53,742 nt of DNA from IMG/VR virus record IMGVR_UViG_3300040985_000553, positions 1 through 53,742 of that record; one strand, given 5' to 3'. Origin of the DNA: a virus. Taxonomy: Duplodnaviria; Caudoviricetes. The notes under the pieces are model-generated. The model did no database searches. It was not told the origin of the DNA and saw only the letters and a program-made list of their open reading frames with translations. The first letter of the stretch is position 1. Each line of letters starts with the position of its first letter. Made by a program: the position numbers and the translations under genes. This document shows positions 13,332 through 44,928 of the stretch, piece after piece.

Positions 13332-14020
13332 CGGTATTTACTCTGCATGGGCCAAATCACGGGTCCGTCAACCGTTGTTACGCGGCGGAACGCCATGATG
13401 TTCGTCACCTCGACGGGCTGTTCAAACTGAAACTTGCCGTAGAGGTGGTTCTTGGTGTACTCAACGACCTGACGGTCCGCCACAGGACCGGTCACACCAC
13501 AGCCACCCAACATCTCGAACCCGTTGTCCCGGTAGAAGTCGGCATAGGCTGTAGGACTGATGTTCCAGAAGCCATGGTTCACCATGTTGAGTGGATTTAC
13601 ATGGACGACCACCCCACCATCAGGTCGAACAGCGGAAAGGATATTAGCAAATACCTGTCCGATGTTGAAGCAATGCTCGGCAGTACCGCCGTCAATAACG
13701 ACATCATATTCTTCCTCCCAGTCAACGGGATAGTTGAGATCAACGATACGCTCCGGACCACGCGCCTGAACAATATCCACATAGTCTACCCCCCGAAATC
13801 CTAGTTCAGAGGTCAACACTTCTGTTGTGTCGTACACCGGGTGCGGCCAGTTGTGCCACGACCGAATCTTGTCGGCGTCTTCCAGTTCGGTGTACTCACC
13901 GCCGATCAGTCCGGGATCGACGAGCAGGTCTGAGTAGCCCAGACACAGGCACGTCTTGTCCTTCGGTTCTATCTGCTGGAGTAGGCGGTATGTCGTTGTC
14001 TCAATACCCACGGGCAACAT
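13328..14020 (-). CDS. class I SAM-dependent methyltransferase-like protein
   Basis: YDVVIDGGTAEH...VRPDGG pattern of Methyltransf_11-like folds. Confidence 0.65.
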   Translation of the reverse strand: MLPVGIETTTYRLLQQIEPKDKTCLCLGYSDLLVDPGLIGGEYTELEDADKIRSWHNWPHPVYDTTEVLTSELGFRGVDYVDIVQARGPERIVDLNYPVDWEEEYDVVIDGGTAEHCFNIGQVFANILSAVRPDGGVVVHVNPLNMVNHGFWNISPTAYADFYRDNGFEMLGGCGVTGPVADRQVVEYTKNHLYGKFQFEQPVEVTNIMAFRRVTTVDGPVIWPMQSKYR

Positions 14021-15632
14021 CCTTCAGGTCTCGTAGTTCGCGTATCTTGCGGTTCTTCCACGTCTCGGCACAGAGCGTGTCCTCACCGATGAACGACAGT
14101 TCCATATCCATGTCGGTCTTGTCAAACAGACGTTCACAATCCTGCGCCATGGCGAGTAGTTCGCCGGTCGTCCAGAATGGTTTGTCGTTGATCTTGACGG
14201 ACAGATACTTCTCACGTTCCTTGCCGTCGTGGCTGGTGATCTTGTCGTTCTTCTCCTCATCAGGCGGCTCCGGGAACGAACCATCCAGCCCGATCATGGT
14301 TGCATTACGGAACCCGAGGGTGTGGAGCAGTCCGACGGCACGGGTTGCAGCACACGTACCGCCCGTGATGTAGACAGTATCTGGATCGAGGGGGAAGTCC
14401 TCCTCGGCAGCGACACGCTGAATGGCATTCGAGTAGGCATGGAAGCCGATGATTGTCGCCCCCTTCTCGATCAGGTGTCGGGTAACTGATGGGTCTGTCA
14501 TGGACGCGACAAAGAAGATGGTCCGCTTGTCGATGTTCTCGAACAGGTCTTTACGGGTAACGCCGTGTGTGGACGTACCATCAATAGGCCGGGGATCAAG
14601 GACAATACAACCCCATGGGACAATACCTGCCTTGTGCATCTCCGGGAGTGTATGCTTTACACACAGTATGTGGTTCTTACTGACCGTCTTACCGTCGTAA
14701 TACTTGGCATGAAGTTCTGAGTAATCTACCGACGGTCCCGCCGAGACCACAACTCCGCGTCCCCCGTTGACTCGGCACCTTTCCACCCACTTCCCGATAA
14801 GTCCAACGTTTTCCACGATGTTGTTCTTGATATAATCATCCGGCATAGAGTCGCGGGGCTGCACCATGATAGGAATTTCACGAGTGTCGGCAACGGGTCC
14901 ATCTTTCTTTGCTCCCTTGAAATGCTCCATGCGTTCAGACAGCGGTGACGTATGGAATGCGTCGAGTGTCTTGGCATTAGGCGAAAGATTTTGCACCATC
15001 AGTCCATGGTTCTGGTGCAGGTTGATGATGCGCTGGAAGACAAAGCCGTCGTGCCATTCACGATAGCCGCGAACTTCTAGTTTGTCGTAGGCAGAACGGA
15101 CATCTTCCAACACGTTGAAGGCTGCTTCACGGTCGGGCCAGAGAGCGAACCGCATGAAGGATGTCTCGGCATAGTCAGCAACGGGACGCTCCAGCAGAGT
15201 CACATCCGTCTCTGTGTCGATGAATGTGTCTAGCCAGTCAGCGGTGACAGGACCAGTCGTGACCGTGTCTCCGTCGATCCAGAGCAGACTGTACGGTGTC
15301 TGATCCTCGGGGTCCGAGACGAGGCTGCGACACGTCTCAGTGATGGCGTAGACCTTGTGACAGAACTTGACCACGTCCATGCGCCAGTTCGGTGGCTCGT
15401 GGTCTCCCATCCTGTTGCGGAACAGGATCAGTTCCGACACATCGTTCAGATTGTGGTAGCTGATATGATCTGCCTCGGGCAGACTGTCCTGCTCTAGCAG
15501 ATCGAAGTCGTGATACCAGACACGGATGTCTATATCCTCGGACCAGTACCGGGCAACAGACTCCAGCATCCGTCGGCCATACTTCTCGAACCCGTCCTCG
15601 TTGAACGACGTTACCAGTACGTACTTGTTCAT
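14001..15632 (-). CDS. two-domain protein: GT-A glycosyltransferase plus MAF_flag10/DUF115-like domain
   Basis: N-half: FCHKVYAI and LWIDGD (DxD). C-half: VVVSAGPS, IVLDP and GGT...LGF...IGLD motifs of the Maf/MptE-like family. Confidence 0.7.
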   Translation of the reverse strand: MNKYVLVTSFNEDGFEKYGRRMLESVARYWSEDIDIRVWYHDFDLLEQDSLPEADHISYHNLNDVSELILFRNRMGDHEPPNWRMDVVKFCHKVYAITETCRSLVSDPEDQTPYSLLWIDGDTVTTGPVTADWLDTFIDTETDVTLLERPVADYAETSFMRFALWPDREAAFNVLEDVRSAYDKLEVRGYREWHDGFVFQRIINLHQNHGLMVQNLSPNAKTLDAFHTSPLSERMEHFKGAKKDGPVADTREIPIMVQPRDSMPDDYIKNNIVENVGLIGKWVERCRVNGGRGVVVSAGPSVDYSELHAKYYDGKTVSKNHILCVKHTLPEMHKAGIVPWGCIVLDPRPIDGTSTHGVTRKDLFENIDKRTIFFVASMTDPSVTRHLIEKGATIIGFHAYSNAIQRVAAEEDFPLDPDTVYITGGTCAATRAVGLLHTLGFRNATMIGLDGSFPEPPDEEKNDKITSHDGKEREKYLSVKINDKPFWTTGELLAMAQDCERLFDKTDMDMELSFIGEDTLCAETWKNRKIRELRDLKDVARGY

Positions 15633-17309: not shown

Positions 17310-19223
17310 TTATCCTTGGTCGGTTATATCAACAATCTCACAATAACCTGCTCCCGCCGAACAAGCAAGTGTCTGAGACCCTGCCGTGTTGTCTTCTGCC
17401 TCGTACTCACCCAGACGATTCCAGTCAATCATCTTGGGCATCCGGCCCAGCAGTTCCTGATACGTCTCCTCGTCACAGTCCTGATACGGGGCCTGTTGGT
17501 AGGTGTGATCAGAATGGGGGAGGAAGCTGATGCCGCTGCACAGATCGAAGTTCTTGTAGACCCATGCACCAACCCCCAGCCACTCGTCATCACGTACACT
17601 GATGGTTACTGAAGGTTTGTGTTCGCACCAGCCGACAGCATAGGCCTTCCACAGTTCCAGCTGTTCCAGTGCGGTCATGTCGTTACGGGTCACCGCATAC
17701 TCAGGCGACTTGACTGGGAACGAGAAGACCATGGTCGAGTCTGGATGGAATACCTCCGGCTCTGACGGGACGCCCTCATCAATCATTAGCTGGGTCAGCG
17801 GGTCCTTCACATCACCACGGACAGTCCTGATGTAGTACGGGCTGTGTCGGGCATGGATGCCGGACCCCGCATCGACCAGCTGCGACACCGTACCAGACGG
17901 CTTGACGCAGGTGATAGCAGCAGACTGCGGAATGTCCAGAATCTCGGCCCACTCCTTGTTGGTGTCCACAGCAATCTGTCGGAGTTCAGCCAGAACTTCC
18001 GGGTCGGGATGGCTGGTTACCACGGCGTCCATGATGCCTGTCAGGCTGACACCGAGTAGACGTTCCTCCTCCGTGTTCTTCGTCCAGATACGACGCAGGT
18101 ACGGGAACTTGGTATAGGTAGACTGGACGGTGCCAAGGATCGTGGCAAGACGTACCTTCTTCTTCAACGACTCGACGGTATCGGTGGACCGGACGACACA
18201 CTCTGTCAGATTGCAGAACTGATTGTTGCGGAGAATGATCTCCGAACACGGGTTCGTCCCCCACTCGTGACCTGCCTGACGACGACCATGGGTCTCGACA
18301 TGCTTATCAGCAGCGTATCGGGCGAAGATGCCACGCTCACCAGACTTGGATTCGACCAGTGCTGTCCACTCACGGAGAAAGGACTCGACATCCGGCTTCT
18401 CGGTGTAGACCACGGAGTTGTTTGCCAGTGCCCGTTGTGCGTTCTGCTCCCACCACTGACCAGACTTGGCATGACGCATCCGGTCGTCGGACAGATTGGA
18501 CAGGCTGATCATGGCCGAGCGTCGGACACCGCCGACGACAACGATGTCACCGATCTTGCACATCACGTCGTGACACTCGATGCTGTTCAGCTTTCGACCC
18601 ACCGCACCACGGAAGACGTTGATGGTAAACCGGAAGAGATCAACCAGTGGCTCCGGACCAGAGGCACGACCGCCGAATGTTTTCAGCTTCGCACCGGACG
18701 GACGGACTTTTGACACATCCCACTTCGGAATCTCACCAGAGTAGAGCATGGCGACAACCTTGCGGTACGCCTTCGCCCAGCCTTCCTTCGAGTCGTGGAC
18801 AACGATGATGTCATCGGAGTTGAATAGCTGATCGGGAACTTCAGGCAGCTTGGCGATGTGCTGACGCTCGACAGAGAAGCCAACGCCTGTCCCGCACAGC
18901 AGGATCATCATGGCCTCATCGAACGCCTTCATGTCGTCCACTGCAAGGTACGAGCAGTTGTATCCGGCAGTGTTGTCGCGGTCTAGGGCAGGTCCGGCAG
19001 TCATCATCATACGCATCGACGGCATGATGGACAGTGACAGGATAGCCTCGCGCAGTTCCTCGACGACCGCCCCATCATCAATACGACGTGCAACGACGTT
19101 GTCTACATAACGATCCACCGTCTCAGACCACGTCTCTCTACGGCCCTCCTCGGGAAGCCATCGGGCATAGCGGGACAGTGCAATGAACTGTTGGTACTGG
19201 GTGGGTAGGTGGTTGGACAACAT
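17310..19223 (-). CDS. nrdJ: class II (adenosylcobalamin-dependent) ribonucleotide reductase
   Basis: NCS, GTGVGFS, RRSAMI, NPCSEI, CNLTE and VKPSGT motifs; C-terminal Cys pair; no beta subunit gene. Confidence 0.9.
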   Translation of the reverse strand: MLSNHLPTQYQQFIALSRYARWLPEEGRRETWSETVDRYVDNVVARRIDDGAVVEELREAILSLSIMPSMRMMMTAGPALDRDNTAGYNCSYLAVDDMKAFDEAMMILLCGTGVGFSVERQHIAKLPEVPDQLFNSDDIIVVHDSKEGWAKAYRKVVAMLYSGEIPKWDVSKVRPSGAKLKTFGGRASGPEPLVDLFRFTINVFRGAVGRKLNSIECHDVMCKIGDIVVVGGVRRSAMISLSNLSDDRMRHAKSGQWWEQNAQRALANNSVVYTEKPDVESFLREWTALVESKSGERGIFARYAADKHVETHGRRQAGHEWGTNPCSEIILRNNQFCNLTECVVRSTDTVESLKKKVRLATILGTVQSTYTKFPYLRRIWTKNTEEERLLGVSLTGIMDAVVTSHPDPEVLAELRQIAVDTNKEWAEILDIPQSAAITCVKPSGTVSQLVDAGSGIHARHSPYYIRTVRGDVKDPLTQLMIDEGVPSEPEVFHPDSTMVFSFPVKSPEYAVTRNDMTALEQLELWKAYAVGWCEHKPSVTISVRDDEWLGVGAWVYKNFDLCSGISFLPHSDHTYQQAPYQDCDEETYQELLGRMPKMIDWNRLGEYEAEDNTAGSQTLACSAGAGYCEIVDITDQG

Positions 19224-31667: not shown

Positions 31668-31767
31668 CGTTCCTCCAGATGAAAGTGAGTAGCTGGTCGA
31701 GTGCCAGATACGTTATTATAATGATCATTGCTGATCCTGTCAGCACAATTCCGACGTGTTCAATCAT
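31609..31767 (-). CDS. small membrane protein (52 aa)
   Basis: Manual translation MIEHVGIVLTGSAMIIIITYLALDQLLTFIW... Confidence 0.45.
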   Translation of the reverse strand: MIEHVGIVLTGSAMIIIITYLALDQLLTFIWRNDDKATKDKAEKPLRKETDG

Positions 31768-32026
31768 AATTCTTTGTCCATTCATCTTCGGACATCACCC
31801 GATCCCCGTACTGGAGGATGTCGTTATTGTAGGTGTCTCCGTACTCCCACGATCCGTAAGTCATGGGTGAACGGGCAGCAACGTACCAGCGTGAGTACTG
31901 GATTGTCTTCTCTTTCTCGGGGTGTTGGTACGTCTTCAGGATACGCCATTCCCACCCTTGGGAATTAGTATAGATGGCGTAAGGGTTATCTACTGGTCGT
32001 GTCTTTCCGAATGGGGTGCGTGGCAT
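31760..32026 (-). CDS. conserved phage early protein (88 aa, MPRTPFGK...)
   Basis: GGGAG RBS; WEWRILKTYQ...WEYGDTY. Confidence 0.65.
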   Translation of the reverse strand: MPRTPFGKTRPVDNPYAIYTNSQGWEWRILKTYQHPEKEKTIQYSRWYVAARSPMTYGSWEYGDTYNNDILQYGDRVMSEDEWTKNYD

Positions 32027-32056
32027 TGTCTTCTCCCGTTGGTGGGTTGTGTGGGT

Positions 32057-32123
32057 GATTTCCACAGACGCCCGAAGGCGTTTCGGCTGGTTATCAGTCA
32101 GCCTCATCAGTGTGGCATCAATC
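32057..32123 (-). ncRNA. type I hammerhead ribozyme
   Basis: Minus strand CCACA-CUGAUGA-GGCUG(9-nt loop)CAGCC-GAAA-CGCC(UUCG)GGCG-UC-UGUGG: complete core and three perfect stems. Confidence 0.9.
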
Positions 32124-32128
32124 GTGTT

Positions 32129-32380
32129 TCATGTTCTCAGTCTCCAGCTTCGCTCACCGGTCGCCGCCCAAGTTTTAAGTAGCTTCGGCTCTGAGAAAGA
32201 CACGGCGTCTATTTCCTCATCGCGCCATTCGTAATCACTGAGATCATGGGCAGCCTTTTCTGCCTGTTCTTGTAAATACGCTAGATCAGTGGGATCATCC
32301 ATGTCCCGATGAGTTTCCACCGTCACCACAGAACTCTGCTGTATTGTACGGTAGACTTTGATTTCATATTGTTTAGTCAT
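32129..32380 (-). CDS. hypothetical early protein (83 aa)
   Basis: GGAG RBS; sits between the tRNA-like RNA and the hammerhead. Confidence 0.65.
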   Translation of the reverse strand: MTKQYEIKVYRTIQQSSVVTVETHRDMDDPTDLAYLQEQAEKAAHDLSDYEWRDEEIDAVSFSEPKLLKTWAATGERSWRLRT

Positions 32381-32414
32381 TTTAGTTCTCCAGTTGGTGC
32401 CGTATGTTGGTTAA

Positions 32415-32538
32415 GGTGGGGGTGAGCGGAGTCGAACCGCTCGTTAGGTAGCTGTACCTACCCTGCTGCATTGTACAGACCTCCAGCACGATAGTCGTGC
32501 CTTCGTAGGCTCTACAACATTCACTCGCCAGAACCCCC
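32415..32538 (-). ncRNA. tRNA-like RNA, 124 nt, non-canonical
   Basis: GGGGGU/ACCCCC-A-CC terminal stem; T-arm GAGCGG-UUCGACU-CCGCUC; internal hairpins; no canonical anticodon loop. Confidence 0.65.
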
Positions 32539-32651
32539 GTAATATCTATTCCTCTTTGGTTTCTTCAATTTGCACAGCTTAATCTATGGTCATAGAAAAG
32601 TCTAATGCTATTTCTGCATGGCAGGTATGTCGTCCACGCATGGCTTCTATG

Positions 32652-33053
32652 TTACTTATAGAATATATGTCGGCCAATCTTGAACAGTCTGGTCAGTCTG
32701 TCAGCCCATCCCGGATCGACGTAGTCTGCATGGTAGTGGGTGGCACCATCTGTCACGTCCACACCTACCCGGTGGAGCTTCTCGGCCATCATGGCGTTAT
32801 GTCTGGCAGCTTCCCATGCAGCACCGGGCGATGGTCTGTCCGGTAATCCGTCACAGTAAAAACTGAACTGACATTTATATTTCACCATATTTCCGTGACT
32901 GTCACGCGGTCCTTGGTATATGACATCACAAATATTGTCGGGCCATCGTCTGTCGTATTTTCTATTTATAACAGTCTGACCTACTGCTATCTGTCCCATA
33001 TCTGGCTCACCTTGTGCTTCAAAGTATATTGCTATGGCAAGACATTCAATCAT
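32652..33053 (-). CDS. SleB-like cell wall hydrolase (Hydrolase_2)
   Basis: CLAIAIYFEAQGE, CQFSFYCDG, GATHYHA and IGRHIFY motifs. Confidence 0.9.
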   Translation of the reverse strand: MIECLAIAIYFEAQGEPDMGQIAVGQTVINRKYDRRWPDNICDVIYQGPRDSHGNMVKYKCQFSFYCDGLPDRPSPGAAWEAARHNAMMAEKLHRVGVDVTDGATHYHADYVDPGWADRLTRLFKIGRHIFYK

Positions 33054-44320: not shown

Positions 44321-44509
44321 ATGTATTTCGAAGACATCAAGAAACAAATAGAAGCCCAGATTGTGGAGTACGAAAAACTCCTTGGGTCTGGAGCACCAGA
44401 AGACTATTCTGCCTATCGTCAATACGTAGGCACCATCTCAGGATTGAAATGGTGTCGGGATTTGGTCGCACAAATCCAGAAACGTACAGCGGAAGGAGAA
44501 GACGATTAA
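44321..44509 (+). CDS. conserved small protein upstream of GroES
   Basis: DYSAYRQYVGTISGL; GGAG RBS. Confidence 0.7.
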   Translation: MYFEDIKKQIEAQIVEYEKLLGSGAPEDYSAYRQYVGTISGLKWCRDLVAQIQKRTAEGEDD

Positions 44510-44928
44510 TGGTCATGGAACCAAAAATGGCAGGTGCCATCAGTAACGCCGATTGGGCACAGGACGAAGACATTGCGGACCCGTCCCCGCTCCCCACAAT
44601 CCCCGGATACCGACTCCTTATCAGGCCTCTGAAAGTTCAGGGCAAGACGAAGGGTTCTATCCTACTCCCAGATTCATTCCAAGATGACATCAACTACCTG
44701 ACCACTGTTGGCCGTGTACTGGCCGTCGGTGATCTTGCCTATCGGGACGACGAAAAGTTTCCTCTCGGCCCGTGGTGTCAGGTAGGCGATTTTGTCTGCT
44801 ACGGAAAGATGAACGGAAACAAACTTCGATATAAGGGCGTAAACCTTATCATGCTTTACGATGACCAGATCATCATGAAGATTGAAGACCCTTCGGATGT
44901 TGATCCGATGTTTAACATCGCCTCATAG
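44509..44928 (+). CDS. groES: GroES/Cpn10-like co-chaperonin
   Basis: PGYRLLIRP...KTKGSILLPD...GRVLAVG...VGDFV...DDQI. Confidence 0.85.
   Translation: MVMEPKMAGAISNADWAQDEDIADPSPLPTIPGYRLLIRPLKVQGKTKGSILLPDSFQDDINYLTTVGRVLAVGDLAYRDDEKFPLGPWCQVGDFVCYGKMNGNKLRYKGVNLIMLYDDQIIMKIEDPSDVDPMFNIAS

Follow-up and report, generated by a model that had tools for sequence, protein, structure and literature searches.

A conserved tRNA-shaped small RNA gene of uncultured marine phages, with a variable-arm loop complementary to the strand on its anticodon side

What is encoded by a stretch of phage DNA that lies between two leftward genes and folds like the upper half of a tRNA? The question is raised by a 53.7-kb viral record (IMG/VR record IMGVR_UViG_3300040985_000553, completeness estimate 91%; the whole stretch of 53,742 bases is called the window below), in which an initial annotation had read positions 32415-32538 as a tRNA mimic. 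The stretch proved to hold a genuine and conserved gene for a small RNA, whose family is confined to uncultured marine phages, and the RNA is not a decoder. We hold it very probable that the structured RNA is real and has the fold described here. The best explanation overall, with about even chances of being right, is that the gene specifies a stable, non-decoding, tRNA-shaped RNA of lytic marine phages.

The RNA runs along the minus strand from G1 (32538) to a discriminator A (32417), a length of 122 nt; from 32538 to 32415 that strand reads GGGGGU...ACCCCC-A-CC. A covariance model (R1), built from 29 sequences of the family, matched the window once, along the minus strand from 32417 to 32538 (134.2 bits, E 1.8e-35). 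The final CC (32415-32416), initially counted as part of the element, is extra and not conserved: the discriminator A of the initial annotation was borne out (A in 39 of 42 distinct sequences), but its CC was not, since the trailers begin with CC, TC, GC, AC, CT or TA and encode no CCA. The parts of the element, in RNA order, are the following.

32533-32538, minus strand: 5′ strand of the acceptor stem (RNA 1-6, GGGGGU), which pairs with 32418-32423
32520-32532, minus strand: single-stranded linker of 13 nt (UCUGGCGAGUGAA, RNA 7-19), in the place of a D arm
32513-32519, minus strand: 5′ strand of stem S2 (RNA 20-26), which pairs with 32464-32470
32479-32510, minus strand: kink-turn candidate and distal hairpin (RNA 29-60)
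32473-32478, minus strand: pseudoknot strand CUGUAC (RNA 61-66), resembling a Tyr anticodon loop
32464-32470, minus strand: 3′ strand of stem S2 (RNA 69-75, UGCAGCA)
32446-32463, minus strand: variable arm (RNA 76-93), with a 6-bp stem GGGUAG/CUACCU and a 6-nt loop GUACAG (32452-32457)
32424-32442, minus strand: T arm (RNA 97-115), with a 6-bp stem GAGCGG/CCGCUC and the loop UUCGACU (32430-32436)
32418-32423, minus strand: 3′ strand of the acceptor stem (RNA 116-121, ACCCCC)

Pattern scans yielded 75 instances of the element, with 42 distinct core sequences, in marine viral and metagenome contigs; exact and degenerate patterns gave 20 viral-contig loci, and one further scan gave 55 marine metagenome loci, some contigs being common to both collections. 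The patterns fixed TCTGG, GANTGAANG, CCTAAY and GTTCRANTCC, so the invariance of these motifs, that of the linker included, is partly a product of the search; copies found by the model only carry UCCGG and GAGUUUA instead. Two further scans brought in a minimal form of 91 nt and long forms of 135-156 nt, and members of the family range from 91 to 168 nt. Model R1 found 86 matches in 75 viral or marine loci, including second copies that no pattern required. These lie 1.3 kb away in L009, L010, L011, L047, L051 and L060, and in tandem, 16 nt apart, in L016, L017, L039 and L070, while the contig of L056 also bears two copies; in L056, L009 and L016 the paralogues within a single contig have different inner domains. 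One member of the tandem pairs (L016:499-666, also in L017, L039 and L070) is a divergent form of 168 nt located 16 nt upstream of the normal copy, in which S2 is a simple hairpin closed by a 12-nt loop and a large insertion lies inside the variable arm.

Sequence similarity among the loci drops sharply at the edges of the element. The neighbouring genes vary between loci yet are co-oriented with it (small ORFs, a cell-wall hydrolase, GP88, ThyX, a primase-helicase). Two pattern scans of prokaryote genomes covering 185,579 species, one genome each, gave no match. A blastn search with three family members against 50,697 GenBank phage records was also empty, as was one with a 10-kb stretch of the window against GenBank phages. 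R1 found no copy in the pelagiphages HTVC023P and HTVC027P, phage DSL-LC04 or the roseophages CRP-345 and CRP-1 (0 of 5), an empty answer that carries little weight. The family has no entry in Rfam 15.

Folded alone, the window sequence reached -52.8 kcal/mol (z = -2.87), a value equalled or bettered by 2 of 200 shuffles. Two alignments were then scored: the full set of 42 distinct sequences, over four helices (acceptor and T stems of 6 bp each, a variable-arm stem of 5 bp and S2 with 6 bp), and a subset of 29 sequences (the subtype of the window and its 130-133-nt relative), over six. In the full set 97.8% of 966 alignment cells are paired, a share that falls to 49-61% once the 3′ partners are slid; changes on both sides are seen in 14 of the 23 pairs, and the score was reached by none of 500 shuffles. 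The corresponding value for the subset is 99.5% of 928 cells, against 42-61% slid. RNAalifold independently predicted the same helices and added the pairs 20:75 (UA in 21, CG in 8) and 76:93. G:U pairs are frequent (for example, UG in 23 and GU in 28 of 29 sequences) and fit the minus strand alone.

The 6-bp terminal stem and the 6-bp T stem with its UUCGACU loop were both part of the initial annotation, and both stood up to the comparison. The acceptor stem (32418-32423 with 32533-32538) pairs in 99.6% of the cells of the full set; it is fully paired in 41 of the 42 sequences, keeps five of six pairs in the remaining one, and changes on both sides in five of its six pairs. The T stem, paired in 99.6% of cells as well, shows compensatory changes in four of six pairs; the two inner G:C pairs had been set by the search pattern. 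Covariation at the outermost T-stem pair (GC in 28, AU in 14) means that the stack is truly 6+6 and not a mismatched 7+5. A 12-bp acceptor/T stack with a T loop is present, with covariation in nine of the 12 pairs; the 6+6 division and the lack of a standard anticodon arm, as first described, are thereby upheld.

The same covariation bears on whether there is an RNA gene here at all, rather than a phage attachment site that contains the 3′-terminal part of a host tRNA or tmRNA gene, or a fold arisen by chance. The T arm and the 3′ strand of the acceptor do resemble the 3′ end of a tRNA or tmRNA, as an attachment site would. However, the acceptor 5′ strand covaries with the 3′ strand, which already contradicts both versions, no integrase was found in the window, and the two scans of prokaryote genomes were empty while the 86 model matches lie in viral or marine loci. 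This alternative is scarcely credible.

Below the acceptor stem the resemblance to a tRNA ends. The acceptor stem and S2 are joined by the 13-nt strand alone, so the D arm is absent, and RNAalifold predicted no helix within RNA 7-19. The GG of the linker UCUGGCGAGUGAA could touch the T loop. A pairing of the linker with the distal loop was discarded, covariation for it being absent by eye. S2, at 7 bp, is the analogue of an anticodon stem and directly abuts the variable arm; its pair 22:73 is UA in 20 sequences, CG in 8 and UG in 1, in addition to the changes at 20:75 given above. In the variable arm, pair 80:89 is AU in 14, GC in 12 and GU in 3, and pair 81:88 is GC in 22 and AU in 4. This arm had first been drawn as UAGGUA/UACCUA, a register wrong by three bases; it is GGGUAG/CUACCU that covaries. 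Two other hairpins of the initial annotation did not hold: GUAG/CUAC pairs in 80% of cells, with one pair gapped in 21 of 29 sequences, and the C:G pair that would close CUGUA/UGCAG is broken in 20 of 29. The strands of the latter have better partners, CUGUAC in the variable-arm loop and UGCAGCA in 32513-32519, the 5′ strand of S2.

The first of these pairings closes the lower half of the RNA. The variable-arm loop GUACAG (32452-32457) is the exact complement of CUGUAC (32473-32478), a strand ending two bases before the 3′ strand of S2, and the two can form 6 bp in 38 of the 42 sequences and 5 bp in the other four. Three combinations of loop and target occur: GUACAG/CUGUAC, GUGCAG/CUGCAC (in L031, L038 and L053) and CUCACA/UGUGAG (in L018, L026, L074 and L082-L089). 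Mononucleotide shuffles of the 40-nt target region produced a 6-bp match in 105 of 12,600 cases (0.8%), and loops of one type never attained 6 bp against target regions of another. The 91-nt minimal form has, for its lower half, only the two kissing hairpins, and its target occupies the 13-nt loop of a hairpin whose stem is an S2 of 6 bp; because this form retains just those, the core design is two adjacent kissing hairpins. Loops of 6 nt can sterically be fully paired, as in the TAR-TAR* kissing complex. In the 168-nt form the kiss amounts to a 5-bp candidate picked out by eye, which is unsupported. A switch between S2 and CUGUA/UGCAG was also considered, since three sequences show joint changes at U25 and U64; it was abandoned, as a separate partner accounts for either change (G70 of S2; G84 in the variable loop, or an inserted UGCA) and C61:G73 fails in 20 of 29.

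Pairing with the variable-arm loop accounts for the conservation of CUGUA, and it leaves no basis for reading that strand as a Tyr anticodon. The latter reading would make the element a decoding tRNA (Tyr or Cys) with a spliced intron of 33-37 nt; ARAGORN, when introns are allowed, does call a tRNA-Tyr(GTA) with a 33-nt intron in the window, and CUGUA looks like a Tyr anticodon loop. The calls are, however, inconsistent among the 42 sequences (Tyr in 4, Cys in 17, Ser in 1, Asn in 2 and no call in 18), and the supposed anticodon strand is swapped to UGUGAG or CUGCAC along with the variable loop that pairs with it. A D arm is lacking, position 37 of the window model is a C, and bacteria are not known to have an enzyme that splices such introns. 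A tRNA of this kind is very improbable.

With default settings, ARAGORN called no tRNA or tmRNA in the window and none among the 42 homologues, and a search of the whole window with Rfam 15 returned nothing at gathering score. The initial annotation had expected no canonical call; there is no confident assignment to tRNA or tmRNA, and covariation is strong. Two features of a canonical tRNA, a D arm and a free 7-nt anticodon loop on a 5-bp stem, are not found in the element. At E<=10 its Rfam matches cover the T arm only (cyano_tmRNA, 12.1 bits, and permuted tmRNA, 11.1 bits, where the gathering scores of the tmRNA models are 47-70) and include no tRNA, nor does any tRNA appear for the minimal form among the matches listed.

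A tmRNA-like part would be possible if the RNA were chargeable though non-decoding, serving as a rescue or stalling factor or as a donor of an amino acid; the synthetase would then be blind to the anticodon (Ser, Leu or Ala type). It suits such a role that G1:C72 (39 of 42), G2:C71 and the discriminator A (39 of 42) are kept while pairs 3-6 vary freely, and that the variable arm is long, and the missing D stem recalls the tRNA-like domain of tmRNA. On the other hand, G3.U70, correctly given as absent in the initial annotation, occurs in no sequence, pair 3:70 being GC in 24 and AU in 18 of 42; the single internal frame, read by eye, is interrupted by a stop in L002-L004; ARAGORN in tmRNA mode called 0 of 42; the Rfam tmRNA models reach 11-12 bits on the T arm only; neither SmpB nor a synthetase gene was found in the window; and the variable-arm loop is occupied by the lock. 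A tmRNA as such was rejected on the first three of these grounds, and we regard a chargeable RNA in the wider sense as unlikely.

The inner domain, enclosed by S2, takes at least five forms on the constant frame. In the form of the window, the hairpin GCACGA/UCGUGC of the initial annotation is well founded: as the distal hairpin (38-43/49-54, with loop A44 CUA U48) it pairs in 100% of the cells of the subset, two pairs showing compensatory changes, while the sequence of its loop is not conserved. A kink-turn consists of a Watson-Crick stem, a variable 3-nt bulge and then tandem sheared G.A and A.G pairs. The predicted fold of the inner hairpin fits this consensus, with a candidate C stem (29-31/58-60), a variable 3-nt bulge (32-34) and putative tandem pairs G35.A57, A36.G56 and A37.G55. 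All 29 sequences agree at C30, C31, G35, A36, G56, A57, G58 and G59, and positions 32-34 vary.

These features could mean that the tRNA-like part is a scaffold, there for stability and processing alone, and that the inner domain (with a kink-turn hairpin in the window and different hairpins in other members) is the effector, a protein-binding or regulatory payload acting on a host or phage protein or RNA. The number of inner forms on one frame, the invariance of the kink-turn residues and the paralogues with different inner domains in single contigs (L056, L009 and L016) all speak for a payload; yet the 91-nt form has nothing beyond the kissing loop, the distal loop sequence is not conserved, and no candidate kink-turn-binding protein was found in the window. 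A payload as the reason for the RNA is rather doubtful.

Immediately 5′ of G1 there is a U in 33 of the 42 sequences, an A in 6 and a C in 3; RNase P prefers U before its cleavage site. Maturation of the tRNA type is likely, and the tandem copies 16 nt apart also speak for it. In L031 a family copy is followed, 26 nt downstream, by an ordinary tRNA-Tyr gene. The latter (L031:3842-3918) is a short tRNA-Tyr(GTA) gene of 77 nt with an encoded CCA, and there is a tRNA-Gln gene in L033 and a tRNA-Leu gene in L064, a few kb from the family copy. No promoter-like or terminator-like sites flank the element of the window on its own strand. In L082 (7020-7112; also in L083 and L084) a G+C-rich, terminator-like hairpin, GGCCUCAGAGGCC, lies within ~10 nt 3′ of the 91-nt form.

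RNA-library contigs 100% identical to the window cover the element in three of four runs, from two studies (32334-32555, 32399-32553 and 32463-32623). This cover counts as weak support for expression, because the contigs give neither strand, ends nor level, and DNA may be present in such libraries. The fourth run (X4) provided a 153-nt contig identical to 31800-31946, off the element and inside a 115-aa ORF (31760-32107).

The surroundings of the element would also suit a signal acting in cis, its fold recruiting RNase P and the 3′ tRNA nucleases to an early polycistronic transcript, which would be cut between the hydrolase gene and the small genes downstream, leaving the excised RNA as a by-product. 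The element does lie between co-oriented genes with no promoter- or terminator-like site on its own strand, one RNA-library contig extends from inside it to 85 nt upstream of G1, and its upper half is the most conserved part. For such a signal, however, the acceptor/T minihelix alone would be enough, whereas the variable arm, S2, the 6-bp lock and the kink-turn-like hairpin are kept by compensatory changes; moreover, several phages have two different copies, and the flanking genes differ between loci. A cis signal is likewise rather doubtful.

The reading preferred here is that of an RNA acting in trans. Its gene would be part of the leftward early operon; RNase P would cut the transcript at G1, and the 3′ end would be trimmed in the manner of a tRNA and provided with CCA afterwards. 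What it retains is the 12-bp minihelix, the T loop and a long variable arm like that of class II tRNAs; what it has lost is the D arm, and its lower half is closed by the lock. The parts kept (acceptor with G1:C72 and A73, T elbow and variable arm) are those read by enzymes that recognise class II tRNAs independently of the anticodon. Through this upper half and the variable arm the RNA might act as a mimic, or compete for a host factor by which class II tRNAs are recognised whatever their anticodon, such as a defence enzyme that modifies the acceptor end or cleaves tRNAs, or a synthetase; the kissing lock would bar it from the decoding site. Phage tRNAs that counter tRNA-targeting defences have been documented.

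A role as mimic or decoy is put forward tentatively, as one possibility that the kept parts suggest. It ranks first among the functions considered, ahead of the processing signal, the scaffolded payload and the chargeable non-decoding RNA, in that order. A wider and more speculative proposal, which we would not favour at present, is that the marine family and T4 RNA C (species 1 RNA, rnaC, compared below) belong to a widespread class of locked class II tRNA mimics of phages that serve as anti-defence decoys. These would offer their acceptor end, T elbow and variable arm to abortive-infection enzymes that disable class II tRNAs, such as nucleotidyltransferases of the AbiEii/MenT type or tRNA nucleases, and would be held back from translation by the kissing lock.

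Several points weigh against this explanation as a whole. The breadth of the family and the conservation of the linker are overstated, several motifs having been fixed by the search patterns. There is no conserved partner gene beside the element, its neighbours differing by locus, and an RNA-related enzyme was not found in the window. The kink-turn candidate occurs in some subtypes only and is therefore not the core of the function. The RNA-library contigs are silent even on transcription, their uncovered stretches are uninformative, and all three that cover the element extend past the mature ends. Those ends and the CCA tail are predicted features, and charging and a partner are hypothetical. 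Finally, the likeness to rnaC adds no mechanism, since the function of that RNA, the one analogue that has been studied, is itself unknown.

The leftward genes that flank the element of the window are at 32652-33053 (a cell-wall hydrolase, Pfam Hydrolase_2) and 32129-32380, and no ORF of at least 40 aa on either strand overlaps 32381-32585. Relatives of the downstream 83-aa ORF were sought in the viral contigs and none was found. Elsewhere the window encodes an SU10-like portal protein with adaptors, a large terminase (~40% identity to its counterpart in pelagiphage HTVC023P), DNA polymerase A, a primase-helicase and ribonucleotide reductase; genes for integrase, SmpB, a synthetase, RtcB or Ro were not found among its proteins. 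The replication module contains a gene for a SegE-like GIY-YIG homing endonuclease (20864-21328, minus strand; Pfam E 8.5e-29), and the structural module one for a 159-aa protein with a Cpn10 (GroES-like) domain (44449-44928, plus strand). The product of 14001-15632 (minus strand), 543 aa long, has an MptE-like (6-hydroxymethylpterin diphosphokinase-like) domain; its gene adjoins a class II ribonucleotide reductase-like gene (17310-19223).

Among known RNAs, class II tRNAs (Ser, Leu and bacterial Tyr) share with the marine RNA the 12-bp acceptor/T stack, the T loop UUCRAYU, the long variable arm and G1:C72, and model R1 scores T4 tRNA-Ser (16.6 bits) and tRNA-Leu (15.1 bits) above the other tRNAs of T4. 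The marine RNA departs from them in lacking a D arm and a free 7-nt anticodon loop, in the 6+6 split of its stack and in the pairing of its variable loop. The tRNA-like domain of tmRNA has a D loop without a stem, a helix replacing the anticodon arm, and pseudoknots. The marine RNA resembles it in its acceptor and T arm, its stemless D region, the helix in the place of the anticodon arm and its pseudoknot, but differs in lacking G3.U70 and a tag frame, in its long variable arm and in its length of 91-168 nt. In sequence pattern the inner hairpin is like the ribosomal Kt-7 and the kink-turns of riboswitches, with a stem, a variable 3-nt bulge and invariant G.A and A.G followed by a further A.G; the motif is limited to the window-like and 130-133-nt subtypes. 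In the bacterial Y RNA YrlA, the Ro-binding stem is formed by the 5′ and 3′ ends, rather than an acceptor stem being present. The Y RNAs are non-coding RNAs that mimic tRNA and occur in phages too (PMC4201824); compared with YrlA, the element has no Rfam match, and the window proteins include no TROVE/Ro domain. Allo-tRNAs from metagenomes and phages (PMC5389517) have an 8/4 or 9/3 acceptor/T split and keep the 12-bp branch; they decode with an anticodon arm, whereas the marine RNA is 6/6 and has no free anticodon loop. The 6/6 split adds to the non-canonical tRNA forms known. If the reading is right, this is a family that keeps just the parts of a tRNA that enzymes read, with the decoding end tied shut. 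A catalogue of 2023, which reports 10,006 candidate structured RNAs from IMG/VR and mentions tRNA-like candidates (PMC10690425), may list the marine family unnamed. In a literature search, with subscription journals outside its scope, no described family of this kind was found and no kissing model of T4 RNA C; on the structure or function of T4 RNA C itself, all that it brought up was statements that the role is unknown.

The initial annotation was right in its picture of a tRNA mimic, and the functions it offered (a new structured RNA class, a processing signal or a decoy) keep the standing of proposals; it had missed the variable-loop pseudoknot, the kink-turn candidate and the nearest precedent, which comes from phage T4. 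Next to its tRNA genes, T4 encodes rnaC and rnaD, two stable RNAs of small size whose roles are stated as unknown in PMC3014915 and PMC9697503. The second (species 2 RNA, L090:3054-3172) has a minimum free energy fold that is not tRNA-like, gives no folding signal beyond that of shuffles (z = -0.83) and is unlike the marine family. The first has the following place.

L090:2909-3047: T4 rnaC (species 1 RNA, RNA C), ~140 nt, among tRNA genes a few bases apart

This RNA, which has no Rfam family, has a T arm, a tRNA-like acceptor, no D arm and a long variable-arm hairpin with a 6-nt loop, CGUCAA, that complements the apical UUGACG of the hairpin replacing the anticodon arm. All six kissing pairs are found in seven of seven Tevenvirinae relatives, with one compensatory change (C:G to U:A); the version in Yersinia phage TG1 is CAUCAA/UUGAUG, and two phages with a very different arm keep UUGACG in the loop. 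In the alignment of the seven relatives 92.0% of 224 cells pair, against 32-45% slid, and the 7-bp acceptor, T stem, variable stem and apical stem covary; the acceptor has two U.U mismatches in most relatives, which are U:A and C:G in Yersinia phage TG1.

The marine family and T4 rnaC thus share the kissing design: both are phage-encoded, with a tRNA-like acceptor and T arm, no D arm and a 6-nt variable-arm loop that kisses. They differ in that rnaC has a 7-bp acceptor and a 5-bp T stem where the marine RNA has 6+6, a short linker (AGGA...), a 16-nt strand ahead of the variable arm, and, on the anticodon side, one long hairpin without a kink-turn motif. R1 scores rnaC at 21.2 bits, higher than T4 tRNA-Ser and tRNA-Leu, and aligns it sensibly only over the 3′ third (variable arm, T arm and 3′ strand), so that the likeness is one of design and not of demonstrated descent. 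For T4 RNA C, a stable RNA without a known role since the 1970s, the lock offers a structural lead, and since T4 is genetically manipulable, the question becomes a testable one.

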